Shown here: in pieces, positions 10,237 through 45,921 of the stretch
Layout: every line of letters begins with the position of its first letter
Position numbering within the stretch: the first letter of the stretch is position 1
Assembly (NCBI GenBank): GCA_977862235.1
Contig: OZ374557.1
Span: 2,418,001 to 2,482,000 of the forward strand
DNA length: 64,000 nucleotides
Direction: 5' to 3'
Source of the DNA: Dudresnaya verticillata
Lineage: Eukaryota
Notes under the pieces: model-generated
Told to the model about the DNA's origin: nothing
Databases searched by the model: none
Seen by the model: the letters and a program-made list of their open reading frames with translations, nothing else
Translations under genes and position numbers: made by a program

Positions 10237-13015
10237 TTAAGGAGATCGTCGAACTGCAACTTTAAGAGTCACGGAGACACCGCTTCGGAGCGGGGACAAC
10301 TCTATCTTCCTCGTTGCCCCCTGCCCAGTTCGTAAGTCGGGTTCTCCAGCCGGATCCGATTGGAATGTACGCTGCGTATTGTCGCCCAAGGTGCGCATCG
10401 CATTATCCATACGCCGACGCTGACGACGGACCACTGCGCGGAGATGAATCACCTTCTCCATCAGTCCCTCTGCTAAAGTTGACCCCTCCTGAACGGATCC
10501 TGGCAATGGGAAGCGCTGTGTACGAGAACGGCAAATACCCCGTAGCACCTGTAACCCGCTTTCCATAGCGGCTAAGTGACCCGGAACCGTGACGGCCGGA
10601 TCCTCATTTTCTTGAAGCTATAACTTCGAGGATATCGACGGCTTATCCCTAAGCCCTGCTTCGATTGAATGCTCCGTTGAGGAAACCACCATTGCGGATG
10701 GTCCCGACTTGGATGAAGGTATTTCCTTCCGCGGCGGTGGATTCGTATCATTTTCTGGAGAGGCGATATCGCTTTTCCGTAACGGTTCCTGACTCAACAA
10801 GGGAGCCAAAGGCTTGTCGCCAATTTCTTCGGCACTTGGGCGTTTTGGAGCCCCTTCCGGTACGGTGCCCGGTTCCTCACTCACCACTGGTGTCGGAGTG
10901 AGTGCCGGCAGCGGAGCACTTGTCGGGAACGGTTCGGCGGCTGCAGGTATTCGCTTCGCCGGAGACAATGCCGCTGTTACAGTACCTGGCGCTGCTTCCG
11001 ACACGTTCTTCTCCTTCCAAACCCCCTTGTTGGATGGCACCGCGGGCTTGGGCACCGCCACAGCAGGCGCAACCACGTCTATGGGCGTCGGGGCCTTATC
11101 CGATACGGGGTAGTAGTCTCAAAACCCATATCGCCCGACGTGGGTGTAGCGAACACTGGAAGGACTGGGGCGGCTACTTTCTCAATATCCACTGCCACAG
11201 GTGCGACGGGCCTGACTTCCTCCCGCTACTCCAAGAAGGGCCCAGCTTCGTGCTGCCTCACCGTGACGGAATCGCGCCGGTCGATTGCACGCGAACGTCC
11301 CTCTGTCTCCTGACAACTCCCCTAATCTTCGGCCCCTTCCAAACCGTCACGGTACGCCTCCGTTGATGCTTGGCGAGGCGCATAACCCGGATGGGCTTGC
11401 ACCTCTAAGGCCAACCATTCCGGACGAGGATCTTCCCGATGAAGGAAATATGGCTCGCCCACTCCGGGCCTATACGGGGGCACCAATAAGACACGGTCCT
11501 CATCCCAATTATACCCCAAGAAGCCCGGAGTGCGTTGCCAATCCCGCTCTCCGTATACGGATAAAAGACGCTCAACCCGATGGAGGGGATACACCGACCC
11601 GTCACCAAATAGGCTACGCCAACTGGGCGAATTAGGGCGATTAACGTCACGGGTAGTAGATACATACGGCTACAGTCTCCTCCGGGTAGGTCATCTTCGT
11701 CACGCGGGAAGCTCCGCCAGTCGGATAACTTGGTATTGTACCGAACGCCGTAGTAGGCAACCTGGAGCCACGAAAATAGCACCAGCATTGCCCGCTCCGA
11801 TCGGAAGATGTGCCAAAGTACTTCGAGCTTATCTTGGTTCAGGGGACGCTCTCCGTTCGGATGTTCGTGATTCGACTCCCGCTCAGTGAGCAGGTCCGCG
11901 GAGAAGTACGCCACCACAGAAGGCATGGACACGGATAGCCAACGGGTTACCTCATAGCTCTCCCACCACGACGGAGCTGTGAGGTAGAGCTCACGTGGCA
12001 TCCGATACGGAAGGTGGAAGAACTGCTTGGTATTCCACGTGTGCAATATGGATGCGCCCACATGCATTCCGTCTCGGTAGCGCGTCCGAAATCGGTGTTC
12101 CGTTGCCGCCTCGTCTTTCCACCCGTCGGCATAGTAGAACGAACACACCATTTGGTCATACGATGGGTCGAAGCAGATGAACTGCACCCCGATCGGCGCA
12201 CCCCGGAGACGGAACGCCTTGGTCAACAAGCGGCTCACCTTCGCGGTATACCCAACTTCTCCGTGGCAACGGTACCAAAACGAATCCGAAACAATAGTGG
12301 TGCGCTCTTGGCAGTAGCTATGGACCCATAGGCGTTGCCACACAAACGCCCGCCGGTTGGGAACGAAACCAATTCGCTGGTTTGCCTTGAATGGCTGCTC
12401 CGAAACGGCTTGGTATCGTCGCGCTTCCAAAACGGATGGATAACCCTCGATGAAGTACAACACTGTCATCGGCGGTGTCACCTTCCCCCGTTCCGCATCG
12501 GATCTCGCCGGGCGCCCAGAACGGTGATAGAAATGGTGGCCTGGCCAGTATCCACTTGGGGCAGGGCCCTCACCGCTACAGGCACGCCCTATCGACATCC
12601 AAGGGCTTGCGGCCGGCATAGTGCTTCGCGCTGGCACACGCGTCCGTCTCGGAGTGTTGACAGCAGGATGCGGGCTCGCCCTCATACTCCGCACCGGCGT
12701 TGATATCGGTGTCGAAGGCGATCTTAACGGAATTGATGGAGGGTCCGCCAATTTGAGCGCCTCACCACCACGTCGGACCTCCTGATCATCATGCTTGGTC
12801 GACGTTTCTTCGTCATGGCGGGTCACTGCATTCCCTGCCCGTGCGGTCGCTGTGGCTGTGTGAGCAGCAAACCGATTCGGATTGTAGACGGACCAGCCGC
12901 GGCCCGCTGATGGTACCTGCACGGCTTCCGATGCGGTGACGTCCGCACGACCACGCGTCGTGGGTCGTGCCGCAGCCGCCGAGGAAGAGGCATGTGCTTG
13001 CATAGAAGCATCCAT
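10237..13015 (-). pseudogene. E1 antisense accessory ORF (type A), frameshifted
   Basis: Likely ATG 13015 (MDASMQ); conserved domain in ORF 11405-13381 continues in 11322-11594, 10618-11076 and 10237-10566; collinear homology to 20920-23609. Confidence 0.75.
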
Positions 13016-13248
13016 GAAGGTAGGCGCGCCCGGCGCTCTCGTCGCCGTGCTCGCACGGGTACGACATGTTAGTTGAAAGGGGAGGGGGAGCGCTTGCTTT
13101 TCTCCCCTGTAATATTGGAAGAAGGCGCACGCAGGAGAAGGGAAAGTTGAGAGCGTTAGCCGTATCGGTTGAATGTGTGGGTGCGGAAGCGATGGCAATC
13201 CGTGACGGTGGGCGCCGGAGGACGTGGCGCCGTTTAAGGAGGGGGGTC

Positions 13249-14740
13249 TGTGGTGAAGTGAGCCGTAGCGCTCATGCGGCGCACCGACGGCGGGCCAACC
13301 GTAATGGATGATGTGGCAATACGCCACGATGATAATCTGGCAACTTGCAACCGTGTCAGTTTTGTGCGCATTAATGTGCACTAGTATGCATCGCTGTACT
13401 GTAGGTGGAGCGCACCAACCGTAGCGGAGTATTTGTGTATTTATTATTTATTTTTAGTGAGTATCTGTACAGTTTGTAGAGTAGTGCGCCAGCCAATGAG
13501 AATGCTGCGCATGTCCGTTCCAGAGATTGGACCAGCAGGGCCGATTTCACCATAGAACCGAACCACTTGGGTCTGGCCCCCACGGACCGGACCGCTCGGT
13601 GCCACCCTGACTTGTATACCAGGGCGGCACCGCAGCGGATCCTAGGTGTGGCATAGACGTCAGGTCGCACTGACGTCTAGCTGCGCTAGTCGATCAGTCG
13701 CACCCAGACCCGTTGAAGGGTGGTAGCGGTGGTGGTAGAGCGGCGGTGTCGGCCGCGCGCGCCGTCGACGGTCGCGGATCAACGGCGTCGAAGCCTGAGT
13801 GCGCACAGGTCGTACCGTACGCGGGCGGCAGCGGCCGGATCCCTGCTTCCCCGTCGTGGGGCGGTACGAAGCCGACGGTAGGGAAAGAAAAAGGAAAGCC
13901 TAGGCGGCTAGGGAAAGAGGGAAGCCGTAGGGCGAAGGACTGGAAAAGAACCCCAAAGCAGAAAGGGCAAGCCTGGCGTAGGCTGGCTTGCCTGGTTTAC
14001 TGAAGCCCAGAGGGGCGACTACTAGATATACTACAGGGCCTGCGGCGGCACCAACCCGGGAGGTGCGCCGGCGCGCCCCAACGCGCGTCGATGCGTACGG
14101 GTAACGGTAACCCGGGGGCGCGCGTGGGCGAAACGGTCCACACGTACTCAACTGCTCGACGCTGGAGTGCGTGCGCGCAGAGCGCAGGACAGCAGGGCGT
14201 TCGACCGCCGCTTACACTAGACGGTGCTGTACACTACAAAATAATAAACGTATAATTTATATGGGAGTTTCAGTTTCACACGCGTACGCGTGCACACGCG
14301 GGCGCCACAGCGCACTTCCTTACAGTTCAGCGGGGCTTCGGCGCCACCGGCTGACAGCGTGCGCACAGCAGTGCACACGTGGCGCAGCTGGTCTTACAGC
14401 TGCGCGTGCGTGGCACAGCTGGTCTTACAGCTATGCCACACTAGGGTAAATGGGCAAGCAACCCTTGAACCCCAATCCCACTGTAGCTCTTTCCTTTACG
14501 GTTTTCCCAGCGCCGAGCCCGTTGCGGTCTACCACCACCACCGTTAGGGAGTCCGTCCGGGCACTTGTACCACCCCCTTGTCTGTTGCTTCCCAATATCC
14601 GTTTCGGTTAGCCACTCGCTGTTCTCCCGTCTCGGTGTGAACTGCTCTACCACCCCGTGGAGGTAGTGTCGCTCTCGTCCCGTGTAGGAAAGTCAGGCCA
14701 GCTTTCTGTTACGGAGTTCGTGGGTTTTCACTACACCACA
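13249..14740 (+). repeat. E1 3' LTR (family A, about 693 bp without the insert)
   Basis: Starts TGTGGTG right after the PPT and ends CACCACA; reverse-complement copies at 41088-41450 (uninterrupted across the insert site) and 53783-54126. Confidence 0.9.
13647..14440 (-). mobile_element. Solo LTR (family D) inserted in the E1 LTR
   Basis: Inverted termini TGTGGCATAG...CTATGCCACA; TSD CTAGG at 13642-13646 and 14441-14445; related to 55263-56036. Confidence 0.92.
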
Positions 14741-14963
14741 ACCACAGGGCGGACTGTAATCGACCCGGGGTAAATCGGGTGAAGGAAAAGATAAAGGAAG
14801 AAACAGGCCCAACAGCCAAAGGAAACACGTTATGGAGACGGTAGGAAACGTGGAAGCACAAAGGCACTGACGCATAAGCCTTAGACTGCGGTAGGTGGTA
14901 CGCGCAAGCGGAGATGGGCATTCAAGTCCCGATCGGGCCTAGCCGAGTTTACTGTGCCGTCTC
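14741..14963 (-). repeat. Fragment of an older family-C-like LTR
   Basis: GGGCGGACTGTA motif, purine tract and GTTTACTGTG as in 57824-58739; flanked by E1 and E3 termini. Confidence 0.65.
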
Positions 14964-16785
14964 GGTCGTGCAAATCGTCGGTTGACGTAGACACATCCGA
15001 GTAGTTGCGCTCCGCGGGTAGCGCGTCGGGGACGGATAGTGGTAGAGCAATGATACACCAGGGGCGGACTGTAGACGCCCAAAAGGCAAGTAGAAAAGGG
15101 AAGAAACCCCAAACCGAAACACGTCCAGAACGGTAGCGGACGCGGAAGCGCGGGTAGACGGACACTTAGGCCTTCGGGTAGGGGTTGCGTGCGCGCGACG
15201 CGAAAGGGGAAGTCCAGATCCAAACTGGCTTGCCGGAAGCTTACTGCTACGTCCTAGACGAAGTATCTAAGTAATGCTATGGGGCCGCGGTGCGGTGGCT
15301 GCATGACGTAGTGCGCGGGAACCCGGGAGGCGTGTCTTGTAGAGATGCGTCTTGTGGTGCAAACCGTCTAGCGACGAGTAGCACCTCCGAGTAGTTCGGA
15401 CCCGGGAGTAGCGCGCTAGTAGCGAGAATGTGGAAGAGCGTAGGTAACACGACGAGGGCGGACTGTAAACGCCCTGGGCGGTAGAAGTGGAACAAAGTCA
15501 AAGAAAGGAGAGAGGGGGAGAGGGAGAAATGAGATAGAACGAGGGAGGCGCGTCGAGGACGTAGACGGACGCGGAAGTGCGGGCGGAGCTGCGCAGTTTC
15601 CTTCGTTGTTAACGGGAAGTACACACTAGCGAAGGGGCTTCAGGTCCGAGGCCGGCTTGTCGGGATTTACTCAACGTCTCAGACGGGTTACGTAATATAC
15701 TATCGCTACGACGCGGGCTGCGGCGGCGCGGCGTGGCGCGCGGGAACTCGGGACGCGCGTCGCGCCCCGGTGCGTCTGACAAGTCGTCGTCGCCATGCAG
15801 CCGCGCACCGGCGGGTAAGGAATAGCTTACAGGCGTGCGCGCCCGTTGGTAGAGGTGATCCGGATTCGGATCCCGAGCCCTCCCAGCATTCCTGGCGCGC
15901 GGGTATGCCTTACCGGCGCACGCCTTACATTGTAGCGGATCCCGATCTGATCCCGATGCCCGATCCAGATCCCATCCGGATATGGGCCATCATTACAAGT
16001 ACACTCCTTACACCTCCCGGATCCCGATGGGCGATCCGGATGCGTGCCGCGCGGGCGTACAGTGCGTGAGCCGCCATACCCGGCGGCGGTTGCGTCCGTG
16101 CGCCTTTGAGCCGACCGTCCGTGACGTGTTCGCGTGCGCCAGTTGCGGTTACGATTGCCCGTCGGTAGACGTCTAATGGCACGCTCCGAGCGGAAAAAGG
16201 GGCTCACCCCCCTTGCACCACACGACCCCCTCCAAAATGCGAACCCTTCCGACCCTCAATCTGCGGCCGTGCGCACTCCCGCTTCGTCCTTGCCTGCTGT
16301 TGCACCTTTGCATCTTGTATTGGTGCGCCCGCGTGTGCGTTGCGACCTCGGCTGTGCCGTAAGAACTCCGCGCTTGTTGCGCGCGTTGCCCGTGCTATTG
16401 CACCTGCGCTGCCCCGACATCATCGCCTGTGACGCATTACGATCCACGTCGTTAACGCCGTTCAGACTCCCTCGCCTGCTGGCGTTGCGAACCAATCGTC
16501 AGCGACGTTGCCCTCTTTGTGTATCGCCTGTGGCGTGGCTACTGAACGTCGTTGACGCGGATTTCTTTTCCTCGCCTGGGGCATTTCAACCGAACGTCAT
16601 TGACATACGTTTTGTCAGACTTTCGCCAGTGGCGCAGGGTTGTTTGTATCGCCTGTGGCCTTGAACAGTAATCGTCTTCGACGCGCGCGTCGTGAAGCTT
16701 TCGCCGGTTGGCGCAGGAAATTAGTCGTCTTTGACGTTTGTGTACTCATCTCCAGCGGCGTAAACATATTTTCGTCGTCGACGTT

Positions 16786-18352
16786 ATGCCGACATTCAAT
16801 GGCATGCGGGTGGCGGCGCCCTCGGCCGCGCCGGTTTACGCGTCACCTGTCGACTTTGTCGGGAAGAATCCTCGCGATCACGCGCATTTCTTCGCGCGGG
16901 CCCCGTGGTTCGACTGGAGGCTTTGCGCGAAGAAGCATTGGTCGCTCATTACGCTACTAGCGGATGTTTGCCAGGGGCCTTCCCCTTGGCGTCTTCTGGA
17001 CGCTAGAGTGGAAATTACGCTGTGGCGTTCCTCCGAAATGGCTTTGGGTGCGAGCGGAACGATCAAGTGCGGATGTCCACGCTCCGTTCGTCTCATACTT
17101 CTATCGGCGCTTCACGGGTTAACCCGGGTCGACATTAACGCCGACCATCTTCAACTTTGACGAGAGGCAATACCGGACAATCGGCGAGGCCGAATACCGT
17201 GCTCGTCTTGGGAGGTTATCGCTGAAGCAGGTGAGGCTGTCAATCGAGCCTCGCGTTTCGGAAGAGGCTTACCTCTTAGGTGTACGCTTAAAAGCGGATT
17301 TTCGTTATCTGCATCGGACAGGTACGTTCTTTTGGGAGCGTTGTATCCGTTGGGAGTGCAAAACGCGTCGCCGAAAGGGCGTATTCGTACCTTACTAGGA
17401 CACGCAGGTTGACCGCATTGCGCGTAGTAAGTTACCTCACTGTTTTGTGAAGATGCCGCCTATATGGCGTGAAGTCGATATATGCGAAGGTTTCGCAGCA
17501 GCGCTCCCCCGTGTGTCACGTATCTTGGTTCCGAGCTGATGACCGACACGTATTCTAGATATTGGATCGTGTTCTAAACCAAGTGGGTCGCCAACGTGGC
17601 GGATGCTTGGGAGGTGTATGACATCTTCCGTATGTATCATCTACCACTGCGTGTGGTCGCCCATCTTGGTGACCTCGACTTAGTCGAAATTTTTGGTGGT
17701 TCCAGGAACTCCGAGGAGTTCTGGGATCTTCGCGCTGTTGCGGATGAGATCGATTGGAACACCCCGGTTGCCGTGCCGTTAGCAAACATCCGCCGTAAGG
17801 CGAATCGTCCGCGTTACGCGATGAGTCGTACTAATTCCGCCTGTGGCGATTGGATTTGGTATAAACCTTGGACAAAGCGTCGTACGACGAAGAACATTGC
17901 GGAACGCCATTGCAAGACCGATCGCTTCACGCCGGGTAATCACCCGCACGGTTTGCGTAGGACCTGCGACTTTGTCGGTGCCTTTCCTCCTCACTTGAGC
18001 GCCTTAATGGCCGCGTAGGATGCTCTTCACGCCAACGGCGGACCGGGGAACTCGTCTGGGACGATTATCGCTACGCCTATGGCGGCTGGGTCTGCTGCCG
18101 AAGCTGATGTTCCGTCCACGAAGTTGTCCACGGGGCCTCATGCGGCGGGTGCTATGCCAACCGGGGTAACCGCTGTTGCGCCCTTGGACCTTGCGGCGCC
18201 CGTTGCGGACGACGAGGGTGACATCATAATGGCTATGACAGTGTCAGAGCCACTCCGCCCGCGATTACAGAAGGCGGAGCACCGAGAGTCGTAGATGGTT
18301 CAGGGAAGGCTCCCGGTGTGCCGGTCTGGACCGAAGAGCAGCGGCGTACAGC
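16786..18352 (+). pseudogene. E2 antisense accessory ORF (type B), disrupted and truncated
   Basis: MPTFNGMRVAAPSAAPVYASPVDFVG ... RRKANRPRYAMSRTNSACGDWIWYKPWTKR ... VPVWTEEQRRT, homologous to 59165-61471; stops and frameshifts. Confidence 0.85.
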
Positions 18353-19356
18353 TTGCGGCGGCGTCTCTTCCAATCCTTGCATCTGTGACGGTCTTCGCAC
18401 GGGCTCTCGTCACCCGACGGTGGACTGTTGCGCCATTTGGCGGTTTCAAGACGCTCTACGCGGGTCACCAGTCGCTGAAAGCGTTCGCGTGAGCTACGTT
18501 CGGAGTGCGAATGGACCGATACTGCCGGCAGTGGCTGGGTACCTATACCCTGGGCTGCGTTTTGGCTCGTCAATAGACGGTCGAGATCGGAGCGAAGCCC
18601 TTGTAGGGCACCGTCCCGATCTTCTTTCAACGTCTATAGACGACTTGCTATTCCTCCGACACTGTCGTCCAGCAGACCGGCGAACCTAGTAAGCAAAGCA
18701 TCGTCTTCCAAGACGCATCCCTCTCGGATCTGTTCGCGTGGTATCGTTACGTTACTCACGCGGACGGCCGAGGGTGATGCCGTTGGCGTTTGGCTTTCGG
18801 GGATTGGCCGGTTGGGCGTTCTTCCAGCTCTTTGGCTTGGCGACTTCGGCTTAGACGGTGAACAACCGGCACTGCCGTGGGGGGTGGGGCAGCATGCCCC
18901 AGGTGTCAATGGGCCGTCATCGATGTTGCGCTCCGCGGAGTGCTCCTGATCGTCTTTGATGGGGATGGATGGTTGGTCCGGACGTTCTGGTTGTTCCGCG
19001 ACGATGTCGGCTTGTCTTTCGTCTACGACGCTCTCTTGCTCGGCTTGTACTGTATCAGCCGAGTTAACGTGGGAGCTGTAGGTGTGGAGGGCCGATACCC
19101 TTGGGACTGAGGTGCGGAAGAAAACAGGGATGCGCATCGGCGGGGGAGGTAACTCCCCTCCGTTGTGTGACGCGTGGGAGCCTGCGTGGCCGTGGGCTGG
19201 GGGTGTAGTCGGGAAGGCCGACGCGATCTCCGGGTTCACGAGGCCCCGATCGTGTTGTAATCGGTGGGTGCGACAGCTACGATGCGGGAATGCTTCCAGG
19301 CGTCGATGACGGTCCTCTTGAGCTTGGGCCTCGGACTGTTGGTGGTCTAGAGGCCA
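18351..19356 (-). pseudogene. gag: E2 gag N-terminal remnant
   Basis: ORFs 18634-19239 and 18265-18630 homologous to E4 gag start (EDRDGALQGLRSDLDRL, SSRERFQRL..RLETAKW). Confidence 0.75.
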
Positions 19357-19464
19357 TTATACAATCATAGATCTGCTGAAACGTAGCGGACGATTAGCGG
19401 CAACGTCAGACGACGGGTTGTCGGACGTCACGCGACGGTACAACTCGTTGTAGCGTAGAGCCAT

Positions 19465-19481
19465 TCTAGGTCGGGAGACCA
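19465..19481 (-). promoter_or_regulatory. Primer binding site TGGTCTCCCGACCTAGA (likely tRNA-Tyr)
   Basis: 2 nt inside the 5' LTR, begins TGG; identical 17-mer at 39025-39041 and 53075-53091. Confidence 0.85.
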
Positions 19482-20919
19482 GATGTGGTGCAAACCGTCT
19501 AGCGACGAGTAGCACCTCCGAGTAGTTCGGACCCGGGGGTAGCACGCTAGTAACGAGGGTGTGGTAGAGCGAAGATAACACGCCGAGGGCGGAGTTTAAA
19601 CGCCCTGGGCGGTAGAAGTGGAACAAAGTCACAGAAAGGAGAGAGGGAGAGAGGGAGAAAGGAGAGAGGGAGAAAGGAGAGAGAAAGAGAGAGAGACGCG
19701 TCAAGGACGTAGCCGGACGCGGAAGCCTGGGCGGATCTGCGCAGTTGCCTTCGTAGGTAACGGGAAGTACTAGCGAAGGGCCTTCAGGTCCGAGGCTGGC
19801 TTGCCGGGATTTACTCAACGTTCCAGACGGGTTACGTAATATACTATCGCTACGACGTCGGCTGCGGCGGCGCGGCGTGGCGAGCGGGAACTCGGGACGC
19901 GTGTCGCGCCCCGGTGCGTCTGACAAGTCGCCGTCGCCATGCAGCCGCGCACCGGCGGGTAAGGAATAGCTTACAGGCGTGCGCGCGCGTAGGTAGAGGT
20001 GATCCGGATTCGGATCCCGATCCCTGCCAGTATTCCTGGCGCGCGGGTATGCCTTACCGGCGCACGACTTACATTGTAGCGCATCCCGATCTGATCCCGA
20101 TGCCCGATCTAGATCCCATCCGGATATGTGGCATCATTACAAGTACACTCCTTACACCTCCCGGATCCCGATGGGCGATCCGGATGCGTGCCGCGCGGGC
20201 GTACAGTGCGTGAGCCGCCATGCCCGGCGGCGGTTGTGGCGTCCGTGCGCTCTTGAGCCGACCGTCCGTGACGTGTTCGCGCGCGCCAGCTGCGGTTACG
20301 ATTGCCCGTCGGTAGACGTCTAATAGTACGCTCCGAGGGGAAAAAGGGGCCTTCTACCACACGTCTGACACATCCTGGGGCGGTGCAGCCGCTGTACGCC
20401 GCCACAAGTGCGCGTCTTACAGAAACGCGCTTGCGCGGCGCTGTAGGCGATCCGGATTCCGATCCCAATTGGCGGCAATATTACAGGCGCGCCTTCATTA
20501 CAGCGGATCCCGATGTCCGATCCGGATGTCGGATCCGGTTTCAATCGGGATTCGGGCCAGACTGACAGTCGAGCACCTTACACCGGGTTGATCCCGATGC
20601 GTCATCCAGACCCGCTCCACAGCGTTGTGCCTTACAGCGAGTCGGGCGCGCGTGGTGCGGGTTATGGCGGTCACGCGTCGGTAGGCCAATCGTCGATGAC
20701 GTGTTCGCGCCAACGGCGAATGAGCCGTTCCAGGCGACCGTCCGTCGGTCGACTCGGTCTTGATACATTCATGGCGAGGAAATAAAAGCGCTGACTCCGT
20801 GCTACACACGACCCCCTGCATAGTTTCAGGTGTATCCAACAGCGGATCTCACACCAACAGTTCGCTCCACCTCTGGCAAATCCACCAACGTTAAAGTTCA
20901 ACCCGGTGAGCCGCTAGCG

Positions 20920-24147: not shown

Positions 24148-25800
24148 TTAGGTGTGTGTGACTCGCGTCAGTTTCCGCCGAAGCCGCGCAGATGCTGCGG
24201 CATGGCATTTGCGCCTCCAATAGCGGTGAATATAATTCTGTGGCAACTCCTCGGCGGGTTCATACGTATCCTGGTCTGGTGGGTAACCGTACCAATGCAC
24301 CTTGTAGGTCATGCCCGTGGGTTCTTCGCGGTGTCCCACGATCTGCTCGATAACATACTCCGTGTCGGCGTCAATTGTCTCCGAAACGGGGGCAGGAATA
24401 CCGCCTGGCATTTGGGGCGTTACAGTAATACCACCTGGTGTTTGGGGTACTAATGTGGTGTCTCCCGCCTGCTGTGGTACTGTACCGTCCACGTCGGTGT
24501 GTGGCGTAACCGGCAGAGCCAATAGCGGCGCCGGTTGCACTGGACCGCTAGTTGGTACCTTGGTGATGCGATCGATTCTGATGGGAATCCAGACGCCGTC
24601 CTTCTTGAAAGTGACTACAGTGTCCGTTGCGGTGTGAACCTCGTAGGGGCCCGTCGATCTTGGGAGGAGCTTCTTCATTTGCTGCGCAAATTCACCGACG
24701 TGGTCAGGGCCTTGACCAAATCGGTCGCGTTCCTTCCCTTCGGTGGGTCGTATATTACGCGGCGGGCGATCTACGTAGACTTGATCGCAACCGCGAACCA
24801 CCGGTCGGAAACGCACGTTACGGTCGAAGAAGGCCTTAGACTTCAACTGGGCTGTAGTCTGCTTGGTCTGCGCCTTCTGTAGGGCATAGCACAAATGCCG
24901 CATGGTTCCCCGCTTTTGGAGCACAGGCGTCATACGCCCCTCCGTAACGGTTTCTTCGAAGTCCACAGGGGTGCCACGAACAATAACATCCGATGGGTGT
25001 CGAGTTGGCACCAAGTCAAAGTCTCGAGGCATCCGGTTGCTGGGATTGTTTGCAATTGGTTAGTTGCACACCATGTTGCACTACACCATTAGGAGTCGAT
25101 TCCATAACGAAGCAAGGCACTTCCTCATGCAACTCAGCTTTGTCAGCACCACCTGTTCGGAGTCTTGACTTACCGTCTGCGAGTTAGTGCTTGATACCAG
25201 GGCGATATTGTACTTCGAACACAAATTCCGATAGGCGTAGGCGCCATCTCGCTAAGCGTCCAGACGTATCGACTAAACTCAATATCCAGCGTAATGCGTC
25301 GTGATCCGTACGGAGTATAAACGTTTCACCGAAAAGGTAAGGACGTAGCGTTAGCATACTCCAAACGACAGCAAGGCACTCCTTTTCAGTGGTTGTATAA
25401 TTCTTCTCCGCATCGGTTAGACTTCGGCTCCAGTAACCCACTGGTAGATTATCTCCAATAGGTTGCTCCTGGAGAAGGACACACCCAACTTGGTAATCAC
25501 AAGCGTCGGTATCCAACGTATAATTGAAACCATGACGGGGTTAAGCTAATATTGGAGGGGAGATAGGTGTCTCTTTAACTCCTCAAAGGCGTTAAACTAC
25601 GTTTCGGTGAGAGTTACAAACTCGAATACCAGACCCTTGCCGGTTTTCGTATTGAGTGGCGAGGCAATACGTTCAAAATTGGGAACGAAGCGTCGATAGA
25701 CGTTACATGATCCTAGGAAAGAGCGTAACTCCGTTTGGTTTGTAGGTGGGTTAGCTTCCTTGACGGCAAGAATATTCTTTCGCTCCACTTCCAGTTGGCC
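24148..25800 (-). pseudogene. pol: E3 pol remnant: RNase H, integrase C-terminus and chromodomain (integrase core deleted)
   Basis: DTDACDYQVG..NYTTTEKECLAVVW; YVIEQIVGHRE..YKVHWYGYPPDQDTYEP; close to E1 pol. Confidence 0.9.
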
Positions 25801-27489: not shown

Positions 27490-28132
27490 GGCGCCGTACA
27501 GTGTTCCGGGTTCGGGCGTGCGGTCTGCATGCCAAACGGGCCGTTCTGCCCCGGGCAACCATAAGCATGCGTCGGTGACGTGTTTGCGCCGTTGGCTGGT
27601 TGTGCGCGCCGTTGGCGGTCGCCCGTCGGTAGGCGCGGAATATCAACCCGCTTGCAAGCGAAAAAGGGGACCCCCTGGCACTACACTACCCCCTCCAAAA
27701 ACGCTAACACGTCAACTTGCTTCAACCTGCCTAGCGTCCTGCATCCGCGCCGGTCATCTGCGTTATCCGCGCCTTCGCGTGTTGCACTGGCCCGCCCTTG
27801 GCGCTGTTTGAGCCCCGTCGAAGACGCACGTTCAGCTTCCCCCGCCTTTGGCGCAGGAACGTTCCCCGTCGAAGACGTACGTTTGACTAACTGCGCCAGT
27901 GGCGTGTGTGAAACCCAGTCTGTGACGTCGTATCCGTGCACGCGCTCGTGCACCTATCGCCGAGGGCGTGTCTTCGAGTTCCACCTTCGGCGTTATTTGG
28001 TCCAACGTCGTTGGCTTGTGTTTCTCGGTATCCACCTTTTGGCGTAGTTGACTTGACTAAGAGTCAAGACCGTCATTGACGTATCGTGCGAACTCCTCCA
28101 GCGGCGTGTGATTGTATAGCCTCTCAGACGTG

Positions 28133-30422
28133 ATGGCACAGTTCAATGGACTGCAAATGGCTGCGCCTTCGGCGGCGTCGGTGTATCCGTCACCATTCGA
28201 CTTTGTCGGGAGCACTCCCCGCAACGATGCGCTATTATTCTCGCGCCCCCCCTGGTTCTACCAGAAGGCCCTGCGGCACGAGGACCTCATCACCCATTAC
28301 GCTGTGAGCGGATTTTTGCCAGGGGAGTTACCCCTGGCCGTCGTGTGGACGAACGAGTGGCGCCATCGGTGCGCCATTCCGAGAGGCTGGCTACGTATTG
28401 CAGCCGGGCAGACGCGTGCAGATGCGCATGCGCGTTTCGTCGTCGACGTATATCGGCGGTCTACCCGTTATCCGGGGTCGGTATTGACGCCCACCGTCTT
28501 TGAATGTGACGCAGGGCAGTACCGCACCAATGGTGAGGTTGGGTATGGGGACCGTCTTGGAAAGTTATCACTAAGCCATGCGGCTGTTTCGGCTGAGCCG
28601 CGGGTGCTTCAGGAGGCTAACCGCCTTGGCGTACGCTTGAAAGCGGATTTCCGATACCTCCATAGGACGGGCACCTTCTTTTGGGAGCGCTGCGTCCGTT
28701 GGGAGTGCGAAACGCGCCGCCGCAAAGGCGCTTTCGTGCCGTACCAAGATACGCAAGTTGATCGCATTGAGCGGGAAAGCTGTCGCATTGCTTCATCCGT
28801 GTCCCGCCGTTGTGGCGGGACTTCGAAGTCTGCGAGGGTTTTGCGGCTGAATTGTCTCCTTGCGTCACGTATATTGGTTCCGAGTTGCGGACGGATCCGT
28901 ACTCCCGATGTTGGATCGTATTCTTCACCGAGTGGGTTGTGAACGTCACTTACGCATGGATGTAGGGTAGGTGTATGACACCCTCCGTCTCTATTACGTG
29001 CCACCACACGTGATCAGCCTCCTTGGCGGGCTGGACCTGGCCGAAGCGCTGGGTGGTGCCAAGAATTGCCAGGAGTTGTGGGATTTACGCCATGGGGCGG
29101 ATAACGTCAACTGGGACGATCAGACTGCTATGCCGCCGAAAAACAGACGCCGTAAGGCAAACTGTCCGCGTTACGCGATGAGTAGAAACCATTCCGCCGG
29201 TGGCGATTGGGTGTGGTACAACCCATGGACCAAACGTCTTACGACGGAGAACATCGCTGAGAGTCATTGTCGTACGAAGCGCTTCACGCCAGCGAACAAC
29301 CCACGCGGGTTGCGCAAGAATTGCGACTTCGCGGGTGATTTCCCGCCGCACTTGAGCGCCTTGATGGCGGAGGAGGATGCGTTCCACGCTAACAGCGGAC
29401 CGATTAACCCGTCTGAGACGGACGTCATTACGCCTATGGCGGTTGGGACTACTGCGGGGCAATAGCCCCTACGACGACTTTAGTCGTAGGACCGGCGCTT
29501 GTTGTGATTGTTGGCTTGCCGTCGGTTGCGCCGTTGGATCCCTCGGCGCCCGTCAATGACGGTGATGGTGATGCCATCATGGCTGCGCCAGTGGCGAACT
29601 CTGCGTCTGCAGTTACGCCTCAAGGCGGCATTTCTAACGTCGCTGACGGTGCGTATAGCCCTCCTGCAGTGCCCGAATGGACTGGGGAGCAGCGCCGCAC
29701 GGTGCTCGCATTCCTGCGAGCAACCGGTTTCGTCACTGACGGGGTGGGCGGGACATCGACGACGCCCCTTGGGCACTCGCTCCTGGCTGCTTTGCAGCCC
29801 GGCGTGGCCGTAGTGCCAGCGTCGACCGTCGTTGCGACCGTGCCGTCTAATGACGAAGTTGCGGCGACTAATGACGAAGTGGCGAAAGAGCCGGTGTCGC
29901 CTAAGGCGGGGTGTGCGGGTTCGTCCGCCATTGCGTCTGCTGACGGTATTAACAAAGACGAGTACGATGACAGTGCCTACGGCGGCTCCGCAGGCTACAG
30001 TAGCCTCTTCGTCCGTGACGGATATTGATCGTTCAACGCCTTTGGCGGTTAATGGGGTCCCGTCACCGGAGGTGCCGGGGCCGTCGACTTCGCCCAAGGC
30101 GGTTGAGGATGCTCCGCCTCGAAAGGCAACGGAGCTTCCTTGTGTAGCGCCTACGGTGGATAATGATTCTAACTCTGCGGCTGTGGAGGTTGACAAAGAT
30201 TCGTCGCCTAAGGCGGGGAGTGAGCCAAGCTCCTCACCAGCGGCGGATGTCGCGGCTTCGACAGCGGTGGTTGTGGCGGGCCCCTTGCGGTCTGTCCCTG
30301 CACCCACTGCGAGCGCATCGTTGGTGACGGAAGACAATCTATACGAAGAGGCGTTAAGAGAATCCGCCAATGGCGTCGGGGATGATGCCCCATCTGAGCC
30401 GTCTGCGACGAAAAAGCCGTAG
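28133..30422 (+). pseudogene. E4 antisense accessory ORF (type B), frameshifted
   Basis: MAQFNGLQMAAPSAAS...SEPSATKKP*, collinear with the intact 59165-61471 copy; split over four ORFs. Confidence 0.9.
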
Positions 30423-31613: not shown

Positions 31614-34600
31614 TTACCCGCGCTGCGCGTCGTCGATGTTTGGCGGCAGGCGCGTGTGCTTCTGATGATGATATCGCCCGACGTATGATCGCGGTAGACT
31701 GGAGATTGGCTCCCAGGTATTCGATGAGGCGGGGTATCCAAACCACTTGACGCAGTAGAGGATCTCCCCGTCTTCTGCGTGTGCGTGCGACTCAACCCGT
31801 TCGATGACGTACTCCTTCGCGCTTGCAGCAGTCGACGGGGACTCCTGCCGTTCTAGCGCCTCTGGCGGTTCATTTCGTTGCGTGATGGGCGTCTGCACCG
31901 GTTCTGCAAACCGTACTCGACGAGTCGATCGTCTAAGGCGCTGGGTCGGTGCCCCGAGCGCTTCCGTAGCGGATTGTGGTTCGTCGCTTTTGCGTCCTGG
32001 TTCCACGCTTGCAGCGGTGTCCTTCGCGTTAGCACGGCCTTCCTCATCGTCAGTCGATGTGCTCGAAGCGGGACCTACATTGGTAGCAGGCGAAGCCGAG
32101 GTTGCGTGTCCCATTCGCGTACGGATGCCCGGACCCTCCTCCTCGTCGGAGACAGATTGCGAGGCCCCGTCGTCGGGGTTGGGGGCGAAGGGCGAGCGCT
32201 CTGCCAACCCGCGACTTCGCGGAGTTGCATTCATTTGCTCCTGCGAGTCTTCCGCGCTTCGCGATGTCCCTGTGCCTCCTGCCGGGTCCGTCTGTGGCGT
32301 GTCTGGGGTTCCTGCTCCTTCGTCGGTTGGCCTGGGGGCAGTTTGCCCCTGGACGTCAGGTGGTCCCAGTGGTTGCACGGTTGCGGGGGCGGCGTGCCCT
32401 GGTGGGGTTGGCGCCCATACCACGCGGTCCCGGGATAAACGCTCGCGTTCTACGCGTCCCTTGTCGACGGTGACTGTATCGTCGTTGGCTTGAGCGACTC
32501 GATACGGTCCATCCGCCACAGGCGCGAGCTTGTGCTTGCGTTCTGCTCGATCGGTGCTCCCGCCGCGGGCGAATTATTCCTTCCGCACGAATGCGAAGTC
32601 ACCCACAGCGATTTTCTCCTTCGATTTCCTCAGGCGAGTATCTAAGTTCCGTTTGTAACGCGCCTGCGCTTTCTAGAGCGACGCTTTAGCGGTTCACATC
32701 AATGTTGTAAGCCAAGTGCGCCACTTGGTGTAGCACTGGCCGGCGGTGGGCACGCTTTCAAGCGACGGCTCCGCTTCCAGCGACAATGGCCGCGGGGGCT
32801 TGGATAGTACCAGTTCGAACGGAGCGAGGTGTGCAGACGAATGAAGTTGCGTATTGTTCGCGAACGTCAAAGCGTCGGTGAACAAATCCCGGTCCCTTGG
32901 GTGGGCTGCTACGTATTGACGCAGTGAGGCGAGGATGGTTCGATTGAATCGTTCCACCTGGCCGTTACACTGCGGATGATACGTAGTGGTGAAGAGATTC
33001 TCCACCCTAGGATGCGGCAGACGTCCTGGAACAACTTTGATACAAATTGGGCCCATTGTCGGACAGCAACTTCTTGGGTGGGCCATACACAAACACCCAG
33101 TGTCTAAGAAACGCCTTAGCGATTTCCAATGCCATAATATTACGTAAGGGAACCGTCCGGAACAGCTTCGAGGAGCGGTCCACAATGACGAGTAGGAACT
33201 TATTCCCCCGCTTAGTACTTATGGGCTCCTCGAGTATATCGATGGACACAAACTGGAGGGCTCGGTTGCTGGGAGCAGTTTCATCTCCTTCACGTTCTTT
33301 CGCCTCAGTACCCGGTTCTTCGCGCAAGTAACGCAATTGAGGACGGTCACGTAACAATCCACCAACATAGACGGCCAATAATATTCGCGTCGAAGCGTAT
33401 GGTACAGCTTCCGCCCCCCGGGATGTACTGCTAATTTAGCGTGATGCCGGAGGTGGGGCAGTCGAACGCGTAACGCGGATGGTGCAACGACTTGAGGTCG
33501 GGCCTCGACGGTCCGAACCAATAATCCCTGTTCATCCGTTGCAAACCGTAGGGCGTCTCCGTCGTCTAGACGTTTCCGGATCTCAGAACAGTACTAGTCA
33601 TTGCCCTGGGCATGCACCAACTCTTCATGCATCAATTGACGGAGGAGTACTTCATTCGCCAGTGGCGCGTTGGTAACCAACATCTAGTCAAACTCCTCGA
33701 ACTCTCGTTCAGAGAGATCGACCTCGCCCTTGGCGTTTTGACATATCCCTTTCTGCGTGAGCGTAGCCGCCCTCTGGCGAGTGATCCTCGTCCTTGACGC
33801 AACTTCCGTGGTAACACGGGATATCATCGTCAATTGGTTCGACGGTTTCGCCGTTCGTCTGTAGACGTGAGAGGGCATCTGCCTGAGTATTCAGGTATCC
33901 CTTTTTATACTTCACGACGAAGTCGAATTCAGAGAGACGAAGGCGCCATCTCATTAACCGTCCCGAAGGGTCGCTGATTTCCATCAGCCACCTCAGCGCC
34001 GAATGGTCCGTATGGACTACGAAGGACTCCATCTGAAGGTACGGTCTCAACGTTGTGATCGACCAAACTTTTGCGAGGCATTCCTTTTCGGATACCGAAT
34101 AGTTGCGCTCCGGAGCGGTTAACGAGCCTGACCAGAATCCAAGCGGCTCCCGTTCACCGTCAGACTGCGTTTGGAAGAGTGCGCAGCCGACTTGGTATTC
34201 ACTTGCGTCACAATCGACGGAGTACGGTAGTCCCTGCTGTGGAAACGACAGGATTGGCGGGTGAGTAACCGCTTCGACAAACGTGCTAAATGCCTGGGCT
34301 TGCCCCTCGGTGAACGGTTGTAACCGGAAGTCTTGCTCTTTCCTCAAATTTTGGTGAGGGGAGCGGCGACATGCGCGTATCGCGATACAAACCGTCTCTA
34401 GACGTTGCACAATCCGAGAAAGCTCCATAATTCCTTCTGGTCCCACGGATGCTTGGCTTCGAGTAACGCGGAGGTGACCATGCGGTCTACTTCCAATCGT
34501 CCCAGACGTATCACATGGCCTAGATAGTTGACGGTCGGGGTGAAGAAGTCGCACTTGGTTACCTTCAGTGTCACTCCGGCCCGATACAAGGTCGAAAGGA

Positions 34601-36349
34601 TCTCGTCCACGTGACGGAAGTGACTGTCGATATCGTTAGAGAAAATTATCACATCGTCAAGGTAGACGAGGCATGAGCGCCACTTGTAACCAGCAAGCAA
34701 GATATCGAGGGTGCGTTGGAACGTGGCCGGTGCGTTAGTAAGCCCGAAGTGCATACGCTTATAGCGGAACAACCCGGCATGGCACGCGAACGCAGTCTTT
34801 TCGCGATCCCGCGGGTTGATGGGCACCTGCTAGTAACCACTATTGCAGTCTAGGGTAGTGGAGACGTTAGCTTCCCCTAGACTGTCAATACATTCGTCGA
34901 TTCGCGGGAGGGGGTACCTATCTCGTACCGTCACAGCGTTCAAGCGACGGTAGTCAACGCAGAAGCGGAGCGTACCGTCCTTCTTGGGAGTAAAGACGAC
35001 CGGTGACACCCATGGCGATTGTGCTGGTTAGATAACCCCGTTACGCAACATGCGATAAACCTCCACTTGAGCGAGTTGCCTTTGCTTTGGGCCAGCGCGG
35101 TAGGGCGGGGATGAAATCGGCCTGGACCCGGGGAGCAAGTCAATATAGTGCTCCGTGGTTGCGATTTCTCCTAATGAACCGTCCCAAATTGACGCGTACC
35201 TGCGCAGCATCTCCTTCATCCGTTCTTGCCGTTCGGCTGAGAGATGAATCAGGTCCAACTCGTCCACTGACGGGGGTTTAGCTACAGTTGCTTCGATCGA
35301 CTTAGCCATTGTATCCGGCTTTGCCGTTACTCCATCATTCGTTTGAAAACGGAAATCTTGATTCGACTCTTCCTCCGCTGCTTGCTCCTGGGTGATACCT
35401 AGGACATCGGCTAGACTTATGTGACTGGGGAACACTGCTGTGGGATGTGGAAACGCAGTAGCGACAACTTGTCCTTTGACGAGCGCTTGCGGACGCGGAG
35501 AAACGTTTGCGACGAGAATCCGGAACGCTCTCAGCGGCTCTACTTGAGCGACCCCGTTAGTAACGGCCAAAGCTTGCTGATCATATAACGTTCCAAACGG
35601 CTGGATGGTAATGACATCTGCTCGCTCGGTCGTTACCGAGATCCACTTTTGCGCCTGTGGCGGGATGATTGTTCGTTCCGCAACGCGTATCTTGGGCGAC
35701 ATTCGCCCTCCGGCCGTGCCGTACTTTTGTTCCGTTGGCAACGGGGGTACGACGGGTGCCGGCGCGGCGGGTGGCGCGTTATAGGGACGCGGGTCCCGTC
35801 GTCCAACTCAATCTCGCGACTTCGCGGATAAATCGCTTCGACAAAGCGGTCGCAAAAGTCGCAACCGAGTATAACCGGCGCAGCGAGCCGTTCACAGACG
35901 ATCAACTCTAACTTGACAACCCTCCGTCCGAGACGTACGACTAAGTCGATAGTGCCCCGGGTTTGAATCGCCTTGTTGTTAACGTCTGGTATGACGGGAA
36001 GACTCTTGGATACGATCCGTGGTCGAGAATCTAGCGGAATGTCGTCAATGCGAATGAAATTCGGACCAGCCCCCGTGCCGAGGACAGTACGTTTCCGTCC
36101 CAAGGTACCTAAAGTTACGCCCAGGTCGGCTTATACCTTGTAGTTCCTTTTGGCCATTACCAACAACTGTCCCCGGGCCTGTGGGGGCTGGTACCTACGC
36201 CACGGGCGCTGCAAGGACGTCTGTGACGAGTCTACCCGCCTATGGGCGTGTTTGTTAGCTACGTTCGGGCCCTCCTTCCGTGTCAGCACCCGAGGCGGAA
36301 GCCTCTCTGCGTGGTGCGACAACCCAGTGTCAGGAGTTGGTACCCTCAA
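31614..36349 (-). pseudogene. pol: E4 pol: protease, RT, RNase H, integrase, chromodomain
   Basis: VLGTGAGPNFI (DTG mutated), LVYLDDVIIFS, VDCDASEYQVG, HPGG..CVTC, LLSDNGP, YHPQCNGQVERFN, YVIERVESH..YCVKWFGY..NTWEP. Confidence 0.93.
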
Positions 36350-38916: not shown

Positions 38917-39958
38917 AATGCAGTCGTAGAGTTGCTTGAACGTCGTGGACGATTAGCGACGGATGTCTGAAGACGGAAAGTCGGACGTCGCACGACGGAG
39001 TAACTCGTTGAAACTCAGCACACCTCTAGGTCGGGAGACCAGTTGCGGTGCAAACGTCCTAGACGGAACGCTGCCGAGCAGTTCGGGGCTCGGTGGGTAG
39101 CGACGCCTTTGGCGGTGAGTAGCCTCGCCTTGGGCGGCTTGTGGTAGAGCAGTTCACACGCCTTGGGCGGACTGTAAACGCCCGAGGCGGAAAGGAAGAA
39201 CAAAGGAGAACAAAAAGGAAACACGTCAAGGACGGTGATGGACGTGGAAGCACGGGAGGTAGACGCTTAGGCCGTAGGCAGCGGTAGGGTACGCGCGTGT
39301 GGAATGGGGAAGTCTGGACCAAGCCCGGCTTACCGGGAGTTTACCTCAACGTCTGGGACGGATCAACTAAGTATAGAACTACCTAGTGGCGGCGACGCGT
39401 GCATACGCGCCGCGAGGGAACTCGGGACGCGTGTTGTCCCGAGCTGCGTCTGACATATCCGTCCGTCATGCAGCCACGCTCCTGACAGATCATGCGTAGC
39501 TGCCCTGCTCGAGTCCTTACGCATACACGTGGATGTACTTCCTTGCAGCCGCGCGCGCCTCATGATGCGTGCGATCTCGATCCGCACTAATCCCGATCCG
39601 ATCCGGATTCGGGCCAGCCATGCGGATGCGCCAGGCTTATAGGCGCGTGCCTTACACCTCTTAATCCGCATGTCTGATCTTGATGTGGGACCTCGATTGG
39701 ATCCGGATCCGGGCCACGCTTACAGCGGACGTTCCCGCCACTGCGCCATGCGCGCACGCGTGGCGCCGTACAGTGTTCCGGGTTCGGGCGTGCGGTCCGC
39801 ACGCCAAACGGGCCGTTCTGCCCTGGGCGGCCAGGGGCATGCGTCGGTGACGTGTTTGCGCCGTTGGCGGGTTGTACGCGCCGTTGGCGGTCGCCCGTCG
39901 GTAGACGCGGAATATCAACTCGCTTGCAAGCGGAAAAGAGGACCCCCCTGGCACTACA

Positions 39959-41087: not shown

Positions 41088-41450
41088 TGTGGTGTAGTGA
41101 AAACCCACGAACTCCGAGACGGACAGCTGGCCTGACTTTCCTTAACGGACGAGAGCAACACTACCTCCACGGGGTGGTAGAGCAGTTCGCACCGAGACGG
41201 GAGAACAGCGAGCGGCTAACCGAGACGGATATTGGGAAGCAACAGACAAGGGGGTGGTACAAGTGCCGGGACGGACTCCGTAACGGTGGTGGTGGTAGAC
41301 CGCAACGGGCTCGGCGCGGGGAAAACCGTAAAGGATTGGGCTAAGGTTGCTTACCCGTTTACCTTAGGAGCCGCTGCGGTGCCGCCCTGATATACAAGTC
41401 AGGGTGGCACCGAGCGGTCTGGTCCGTGGTGGCCAGACCCTAGTGGTCTG
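41088..41450 (-). repeat. Family-A LTR fragment
   Basis: Reverse complement of 13559-13646 + 14446-14740. Confidence 0.9.
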
Positions 41451-42224
41451 TGTAGTATCTCTAAACGCACCACCGAATGCGACGCCAGGATGAGACCCCA
41501 AAGGACCAGGAAGATCGGTCGGATTTCGTAGCAAACGGCCGAACGTAGAACGGACCTGCGCGCCGGTAGCAAGCGTGGTAGAGCGGGAGCGCACAGACGA
41601 AGTCGCGGCCAAGATCCTGGATGAGCAGTGGAAAATGGCCGAGTTGGGGAAAAGGTTGCAAAACTTTACTTCCAACCTCTGGCGGGACGACTTCGTACCT
41701 ATTCTGGCCGAGTCGTGGTTTGTGGCTGTCTAAGTAGGCCCAAAATCGGCCACTAGAGCTAATCTAGAGCTATTCTACAGTTAGTGGCCGAGGTTACTCC
41801 CCGTCGGCCATAATATCTACTTGTGTTCCGGCGTCGGGCCAATGTTGTACCCTTACCAGACTAAACCAAGTACTTGTTCGTTAGTGGTTGGCCAAATGAG
41901 TTAGATTTTCCCTTAATTTTTCCGCTGTCTTCTGCTTGATTCACCTGCGGCCAAATCCAATTTCCTTTCCGCACTTGCTTCCAGATCCGATCACACCGAT
42001 CATACGTGTACAGCGAGCCACGTGATGCGCTTGGGTGTCGTAGGTGGCCACGTGTGACACACGTGTACACTTGTTGGACACGTGTGCCTCTTGCGCATGT
42101 TCACCGGCGTCCGCTCGGCCGCACTGTCGTCGGTTGGCCAAACGTATCTTTCTGATTGGGCTGCCTGTCCCACTTGGCCCGGCCGGTTGCACCCGTTTTG
42201 GAGGCCCCTTGGCGTTGCAACACA
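41451..42224 (-). repeat. Probable 3' LTR of another element (family F)
   Basis: Begins TGTAGTA exactly where LTR-A homology stops; carries TGGTAGAGCG; ends ...GCAACACA followed by PPT-complement aagcccccttc. Confidence 0.6.
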
Positions 42225-42435
42225 AAGCCCCCTTCGCAAGCGCGGACCCCCGGCCGCGAGGTCGGATCACGGCTATATCAAGACGGGAGCCGCGTCGTCT
42301 GGCACCCTCATCTCCGGCCATCACCCTCAGCACGCGCACCTTAACTGCGCACGCTTGCACCCTACGGCCGACTGCGCTCCTTACTCTTAACCTCCCCCAC
42401 CTTCTCCGACGCCACGCCTTGGCCATCGCGTAGCG

Positions 42436-45700: not shown

Positions 45701-45921
45701 AGCTGGGGGTGCACAACGTCGTCCCTGAGGGGGTGGCTCAACTTTGCATTTCCACGCTATGCGCAGGGATAGGTAGCTCTTGATTTCGCAATCCGACCGA
45801 AGCGAAATTCCTTTCGGTTGATGTCTTTCCTTTCCACATTTAGTAGTCGTCCAATTCCCCGGATGGGCCGCAGTCCAGAAGCACGCTTTTCTTCAAAGAA
45901 GACCCGAAGTCTTCCGTTACG

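Follow-up and report, generated by a model that had tools for sequence, protein, structure and literature searches.

Chromoviruses of a probable red alga carry a tRNA-Tyr primer binding site and conserved LTR-end words that may pair with the 5' half of this tRNA

Results

A nest of LTR elements

The window, by which we mean the whole 64,000-nt stretch of DNA that was analysed, is a nest of chromoviruses (Ty3/gypsy) in what appears to be the genome of a florideophyte red alga. Self-comparison showed that nested LTR elements and solo LTRs fill it from about 7 kb to its end. In broken frames of the window, Pfam searches recognised RT, RNase H and integrase domains as well as chromodomains, and the LTR features of chromoviruses (TG...CA ends, a primer binding site or PBS, and a target duplication) are present. 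In element C2 the Pfam matches to RT, RNase H and integrase follow one another at 34829-34401, 34635-33712 and 33593-33010 on the minus strand; chromodomain matches (PF00385) lie after integrase at 31617-32573, 24151-25059 and 62684-63067.

The RT-RNase H frame of C2 has named close homologues from Chondrus crispus and Agarophyton chilense. A tree of the RNase H region (48 rows, with no named chromovirus reference clades among them) grouped C2 with Chondrus and Agarophyton proteins in a clade of 14 rows (support 95/99). A 25-row clade adds two further pol remnants of the window together with nine contigs of metagenome-assembled genomes (MAGs), with support of 93/100, below the star level; contigs L009 and L012 share 44-45% identity with C2 in this region. 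A host class 3 lipase gene lies at 956-1987 on the minus strand, where a stop interrupts the frame near 1547-1549; its relatives are 850-1300 aa long. The 956-1546 portion shares 73% identity with a Chondrus protein, 68% with one of Agarophyton and 66% with one of Gracilariopsis. Because the relatives of both the lipase and pol are red-algal, we infer that the host is a florideophyte red alga.

Parts of the elements C1 and C2 lie as follows:

31617-34829, minus strand: broken pol of C2 with RT, RNase H, integrase and chromodomain (Pfam)
16212-19463, minus strand: internal region of C1, about 3.3 kb, in which no pol domain was found
19484-20358, minus strand: 5' LTR of C1, U5 end at 19484, with a TATA-like word about 360 nt from the U5 end

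The LTRs of C1 are 90.8% identical and flanked by the target duplication CGTCT. Since its interior of about 3.3 kb lacks a detectable pol domain, C1 is likely to be a deleted, non-autonomous copy.

Several other features were observed in the nest. Long open reading frames lie 3' of pol in antisense orientation at 59144-61471 (plus strand), 28112-28942 (plus) and 11405-13447 (minus), with 775 and 680 codons, and had no match in Pfam or NCBIfam. Weak homology (E 1e-5) links the family C version to that of family B, and the frame is a putative extra gene common to these chromoviruses. Two further long frames, at 42391-44319 and 45847-47220 (both plus), had no Pfam match; they lie in the 11 kb to the left of the PBS of the family B element B3, a stretch in which no pol domain was found. 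A remnant of a Tc5/pogo-like DDE transposase at 55784-56974 (plus), recognised by weak Pfam matches, overlaps the LTR end A2.

The primer binding site and its probable tRNA

The original prediction described an identical PBS complement in three elements from two LTR families. This was confirmed: TCTAGGTCGGGAGACCA has three exact matches in the window (19465, 39025 and 53075; chance 0.01), each 2-5 nt from an LTR terminus, in two family C elements and one family B element. Here and below, all motifs are in tRNA sense on the strand opposite the element RNA; on the RNA they are complements.

19464-19481, minus strand: PBS of C1, complementary to tRNA-Tyr positions 59-76 (19 nt with 19463)
39025-39041, minus strand: PBS of C2, 17 nt, with a mismatch to the tRNA at position 59
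53074-53091, minus strand: PBS of B3, an 18-nt match

No tRNA gene was found within the 64,000-nt window, and no PBS-matching tRNA gene in five MAGs. The T arm of the primer was predicted from the PBS, and metagenome contigs were scanned with the resulting pattern, position 59 being left open. The scan returned one match, a complete tRNA-Tyr(GTA) gene on contig L003 (Rfam 53.7 bits) with a 24-nt intron after position 37; once spliced, the tRNA is 76 nt long. The PBSs match its 3' end, including CCA, over 17-19 nt, a match that follows from the construction of the scan pattern. Other features were not set by the pattern, namely the Tyr anticodon, the pairing 5' strand CTCCCGG, T59 and the D and anticodon arms; T59 agrees with seven of eight PBSs. 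The L003 tRNA also has C1-G72 plus A73, the set by which tRNA-Tyr is recognised in eukaryotes. In its variable loop, its T arm and at positions 26-28 the L003 tRNA is similar to a C. merolae gene in the supplement passages of PMC3728597 that, judged from its GTA anticodon, is a tRNA-Tyr gene; as given there that gene has T20, but another acceptor stem. A Maf gene beside the L003 tRNA has relatives in mixed eukaryotic clusters. The L003 tRNA is therefore treated as a proxy for the host primer, eukaryotic and plausibly red-algal.

Judged against this proxy, it is very probable that tRNA-Tyr primes these elements, as originally proposed, because a real tRNA-Tyr(GTA) gene has the PBS-matching 3' end. 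All eight PBSs seen in the clade are of one type. Self-priming of the Tf1 or Tcn1 type was rejected on the grounds that the PBS matches a tRNA including CCA, and the tRNA-Tyr of contig L116 was ruled out as primer by its different acceptor stem. The yeast and plant tRNA-Tyr sequences that had served as references were unsuitable for a red-algal host. When the proxy was compared with the predicted motifs, the 3' end was found and the predicted 20-mer was not.

The PBS had a single match among viral contigs, in a phage-like contig, which was judged to be chance; a pol scan of the same class of contigs found one distant element, and a scan with the tRNA 5' end returned tRNA-Arg. Some of the contigs used here come from G001, a bacterial species-representative MAG with many eukaryotic contigs (L004-L014, L097-L100 and L116), which carry red-algal-clade chromoviruses, AT-rich organelle-like tRNA clusters and an animal-type tRNA cluster.

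A word complementary to the D arm

The word TGGTAGAGC, which is GCUCUACCA on the element RNA, has 12 exact matches in the window (chance 0.31), a number reached in none of 100 shuffles. It is called the D block below, since GCUCUACCA is complementary to tRNA positions 17-25, in the D loop and D stem; the match to the L003 tRNA, which has C20, is 8/9. The ten positions first listed for it were correct, and two reverse copies, at 14644 and 54142, had been overlooked.

We gathered 17 LTR ends, 13 from the window and four from contigs of G001. The ends A1, A2, C4, D1, D2 and L094 were found through the motif itself, so that the fair count is that of the PBS-anchored set. In this set the D block is present in 3/3 ends of the window and in all three of the G001 ends that are long enough (L012 with 8/9 positions). 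The other two PBS-bearing G001 contigs are L014, which spans 56 nt, and L007, which spans 101 nt with no D block; 11 of 16 D blocks fall inside 101 nt, and L007 is possibly a true miss. The LTR ends and their blocks are as follows, the 6-11 block and the hairpin being taken up below:

19538-19543, minus strand: 6-11 block GCUACC in the C1 5' LTR, complementary to tRNA 6-11
19562-19570, minus strand: D block GCUCUACCA in the C1 5' LTR, complementary to tRNA 17-25
19587-19605, minus strand: GGGCG/CGCCC hairpin in the C1 5' LTR; loop 19592-19600, with two substitutions relative to the other family C copies
15353-16211, minus strand: 3' LTR of C1; D block 15431-15439 with one substitution (it reads TGGAAGAGC), anticodon loop 15461-15469
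39044-39958, minus strand: 5' LTR of C2; 6-11 block 39096-39101, D block 39142-39150, anticodon loop 39170-39178
14964-15352, minus strand: family C LTR end C0; 6-11 block 15017-15022, D block 15040-15048, loop 15067-15075 (minus) matching tRNA 30-38 with no wobble pair
57824-58739, minus strand: 3' LTR of C3; 6-11 block 57876-57881, D block 57922-57930, anticodon loop 57950-57958
54142-54229, plus strand: C4, an LTR end of family C that an LTR insertion truncates ahead of the anticodon hairpin; D block 54142-54150
14747-14765, minus strand: family C anticodon hairpin fragment beside the B1 LTR end; loop 14752-14760
14644-14746, plus strand: LTR end B1; D block 14644-14652
41088-41183, minus strand: LTR end B2; D block 41175-41183
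53177-53185, minus strand: D block in LTR B3, with neither a 6-11 block nor an anticodon block
13647-14439, minus strand: solo LTR A1 with a 10-nt terminal inverted repeat and target duplication CTAGG; 6-11 and D blocks 13722-13727 and 13733-13741
55940-56036, plus strand: LTR end A2; D block 55940-55948, 6-11 block 55958-55963
41451-41584, minus strand: probable LTR end D1, whose other LTR end was not found; CCGGTAGC, matching tRNA 4-11, ends at 41570, D block 41576-41584
56968-57799, plus strand: solo LTR D2 with target duplication TACAC; D block 57677-57685, 6-11 block 57687-57692

Several lines of evidence indicate that the D block is conserved beyond its surroundings, as the original prediction had asked of it. 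TGGTAGAGC is the top word common to LTR ends that otherwise do not align, being present in 6/6 informative PBS-anchored ends, and TGGTAGAG is among the two top shared 8-mers (6/6 groups, 16/17 ends). The D block lies 74-125 nt from the LTR end across groups, and the flanks do not align between groups (77 pairs, mean z 0.05, one pair above 3). None of 18 LTR pairs of other lineages (16 loci, several of them near copies) has it, even when one mismatch is allowed, and those lineages lack this type of PBS as well. Because no element of the clade with another PBS was found, motif and primer are inseparable from shared ancestry. A search of 14 further MAG contigs gave no new LTR end with both blocks.

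For the counts that follow, the near-identical copies B2, C1b and C3 were dropped, leaving 14 ends. The position opposite tRNA 20 is T in 13 of these, whereas the L003 tRNA has C20. The two positions after the D block are G in 8/14 and 9/14 ends, letters that would suit a host tRNA-Tyr with G26-G27. TGGTAGAGC is a generic D-arm word, found in 10 of the 29 tRNA genes compared, a set biased by retrieval. The D block was predicted to be more open than its surroundings in 14/16 ends (0.62 vs 0.44, with base composition uncontrolled). In 6/7 LTRs there is a TATA-like word at a distance of 330-384 nt from the LTR end, and the blocks are therefore likely to be transcribed into the leader RNA. TGTAA(G) words are repeated upstream of the TATA-like box, for example at 14320-14430, 19971 and 58318-58500. 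A bacterial promoter scan, a method unsuited to this DNA, found nothing.

A second block matching tRNA 6-11

The original list of three paired regions was incomplete, as it overlooked a block that matches tRNA 6-11. Before any matching tRNA was known, GGTAGC had been noted as a candidate match to 6-11, and it equals positions 6-11 of the L003 tRNA, which has G6-G7; G7 is not dictated by the PBS. GGTAGC lies within 51 nt of the D block on its LTR-end side in 10/14 ends (0.31 expected), on the other side in 1/14 and on the opposite strand in 0/14. On the RNA, GCUACC thus follows GCUCUACCA in the order needed to pair with tRNA 6-11. The spacer between the two blocks varies from 1 to about 40 nt. 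In D1 and L094 the match extends to tRNA 4-11, and none of the three family B ends has the block.

A hairpin in family C with a possible anticodon contact

The motif GGCGGACTGTA has five exact matches in the window (14748, 15063, 15457, 39166 and 57946) and sits inside a GGGCG/CGCCC hairpin. The claim that it follows the D motif in family C held where both are present, at a distance of 14-17 nt; the copy at 14748 has no D motif in front because a family B LTR ends right there. Family B LTR ends at 54127 and 14747 abut family C LTRs at a nearly identical place and in the same relative orientation, both junctions falling between the D block and the anticodon hairpin. They may be either an insertion hot spot or a single old event that was later rearranged.

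The 9-nt hairpin loop is complementary to tRNA 30-38. The match is exact in C0, and C1a, C2 and C3 each need one G-U pair. Loop matches of 9-10 nt occur in 4/6 family C ends and are reached by 0-1 of 40 shuffles. The computed energies are -9.6 to -12.2 kcal/mol, and the loop was predicted to be unpaired with a probability of 0.67-0.99. The C1b loop has two substitutions, in agreement with the mutation originally noted in the LTR at 19484, and C4 is truncated ahead of the hairpin. Within family C the stem shows conservation with no compensatory change, and the anticodon block was found in no family other than C. The proposed anticodon contact is thereby narrowed to the 9-nt loop and to family C; the contiguous TGGTAGAGCGGCGGACTGTA is absent from L003. 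GGCG, once considered as an extension of the tRNA pairing, reads better as hairpin stem, and positions 26-29 of the L003 tRNA are ATTT, not GGCG.

Two other matches are recorded here. Another family C hairpin (19518-19536 and 39074-39093) has a loop, AGTTCG, complementary to the tRNA T loop, which recurs in C1, C2 and C3. As a T-arm block it was not above chance (in the best case 6/40 shuffles were as good), and a T-arm contact is unlikely. In L094 a 9-nt match to tRNA 35-43 (0/40 shuffles) occurs in no other end and was left uncounted.

Discussion

A model for extended primer contacts

From the observed complementarity and conservation we infer pairing and function. In the proposed mechanism, tRNA-Tyr would anneal by 18 nt to the PBS, which would free tRNA positions 1-7 and 49-53. 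GCUACC and GCUCUACCA, lying in predicted open loops, would then pair with tRNA 6-11 and 17-25 and open the D arm, and these upstream words would hold the primer in the initiation complex of reverse transcription. Family C might add a loop-loop contact with the anticodon.

We give a probability of roughly 0.6 to the main reading, that in red-algal chromoviruses the PBS matches the tRNA-Tyr 3' end and words at the LTR end pair with its 5' half. An extended primer contact is likely to be a property of the whole clade. Pairing with the D arm, the contact originally suggested, is moderately probable: the word is conserved across unalignable families, and its match to the L003 tRNA, with C20, stops at 8/9. 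The anticodon contact in family C is a more tentative proposal, at somewhat less than even odds. More speculative again is a fuller version, in which the LTR end would be a scaffold that refolds tRNA-Tyr by reading its 5' half from 6-11 on to 17-25; in family C the series would continue with a 9-bp anticodon kiss. As many as 42 of 76 tRNA bases would then be paired, in a switch for primer selection and activation that has outlasted all other LTR similarity across the clade.

Co-folding of each end with tRNA 1-58 mostly paired tRNA 3-12 and 14-27. When LTR ends were folded with the tRNA, as had been suggested, predicted binding with the L003 tRNA beat at least 24 of 25 shuffles in 3/15 ends; with U20 assumed, a partly circular choice, this rose to 10/15. 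Predicted binding of L009, L086 and C4 was at or below chance. The PBS helix cannot be represented alongside these pairings in the co-fold models, because the joint topology would be crossed, as we judge it to be for the upstream contacts of HIV-1. Modifications of the D loop may weaken the pairing; in the passages of PMC13191261 on M-MuLV, extra contacts vanished with the modified native tRNA.

Alternative explanations

The main rival, which remains, is that the 9-nt word is recognised by protein, as a signal on RNA or DNA (for packaging, Gag or nucleocapsid binding, 3'-end processing, or as a downstream promoter element), its likeness to a tRNA being a coincidence or the relic of a captured tRNA piece. 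The word is short and generic among tRNAs, it is near-invariant even where the PBS-matching L003 tRNA differs, predicted binding to the proxy is weak, and it ends in CA, a usual cleavage dinucleotide. A protein signal would hardly, however, account for a second block whose order and side are those required by tRNA 6-11, or for G7 in that block, which is absent from the animal-type tRNA-Tyr of L116 and from the C. merolae gene as far as the PMC3728597 supplement passages give it; a captured piece sits poorly with two blocks that persist though their spacer varies from 1 to about 40 nt. We consider this rival unlikely, though not negligible. It is far less probable that the LTR contains an antisense RNA polymerase III promoter with TGGTAGAGCGG as its A box. 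The A-box pattern is TRGYNNARYGG, of 11 nt, and 8/17 ends fit it, but the final GG is absent in 9/17, the two free positions of the pattern are invariant in 14/14, and a B box was absent from the region 15-110 nt downstream in all 17, one mismatch being allowed. The blocks might also be a site where 5' tRNA fragments, not the intact primer, regulate the element RNA, since they cover tRNA 6-25, the span of common 5' fragments. Against this, the blocks of every group keep a constant position shortly before the PBS, and a split pairing with a variable spacer would be a poor small-RNA target; we think this explanation very improbable as well.

For the family C hairpin alone, the loop could pair not with the anticodon but with a TGTAA-containing repeat of U3 at the 3' end of the RNA, bridging its 5' and 3' ends. 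TTACAG is enriched (43 vs 17.9 expected), the U3 of 6/7 LTRs holds 2-5 TGTAA words, and the best partners reach -9.7 (C3), -7.7 (C2) and -6.1 (C1a) kcal/mol, against -9.6 for tRNA 30-38, so that by these models the U3 repeats would rival the tRNA in strength in C3 and C2. These scores are nonetheless the best of many windows and carry no control, the C0 loop letter suits tRNA G37 and not TGTAA, and TGTAA upstream of TATA is a promoter-side element in some LTR clades in the passages of PMC3601003. Bridging is improbable in our estimation. Pairing of the LTR-end words with tRNA-Tyr is the reading that we prefer.

Relation to known systems

The principle of extra contacts between primer and template is known from Ty1, Ty3 and HIV-1. 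In Ty1, a copia-type element with a short PBS for tRNAi-Met, extra boxes downstream of the PBS pair with the T and D arms; the red-algal blocks are upstream and include tRNA 6-11. Ty1 likewise has a PBS in segments near the 5' end, as the PMC5371799 passages describe it. Ty3 of S. cerevisiae, from the chromovirus clade, is similar in combining a PBS with a second site that takes the D arm, and different in using tRNAi-Met and in having that second part about 4800 nt away in U3 (passages of PMC5371799). The red-algal elements instead have an 18-nt PBS for tRNA-Tyr and blocks 74-125 nt upstream at the LTR end. In HIV-1 an A-rich loop or a primer activation signal upstream of an 18-nt PBS pairs with the anticodon loop or T arm (passages of PMC13191261), and the counterpart of the A-rich loop would be the family C loop. 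HIV-1 is, however, a retrovirus that uses tRNA-Lys3 with a 4-nt loop contact; the red-algal loop match is 9 nt, and the D arm is the main conserved contact.

Green-plant and fungal chromoviruses share with these elements a Ty3/gypsy pol with a C-terminal chromodomain, TG...CA ends and 5-nt target duplications. Tcn1 and Tf1/Sushi differ in being self-priming; tRNA PBSs occur in other plant clades, and the frequent primer types over all elements are Met, Arg, Lys, Asp and Asn (passages of PMC6317226). That green-plant survey, which did not sample red algae, names no Tyr primer in those passages, and "Tyr" is absent from five of its supplement texts (17,418 characters; its large tables are probably not among them). 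Text passages of PMC8282616, which includes two red algae, make no mention of PBS or tRNA, and those of PMC3601003 cover LTR motifs, not red algae. Within the full-text literature, Repbase reports and subscription journals lying outside the search, we found no report of the PBS, of algal tRNA-Tyr priming or of the blocks. The primer, the upstream position, the contact with tRNA 6-11 and the clade-wide conservation appear to be new.

Conclusions

Extra contacts between primer and template have been described in a small number of laboratory models, and even for HIV-1 and M-MuLV they are a matter of debate. Deep conservation would indicate such contacts directly, here in a lineage whose priming we did not find described. 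If the reading from sequence is correct, these elements would offer a compact system in which to ask whether contacts with the D arm and anticodon select or activate the primer, and a short diagnostic word for locating LTR ends in red-algal genomes. tRNA-Tyr would very probably join the primers used by chromoviruses.
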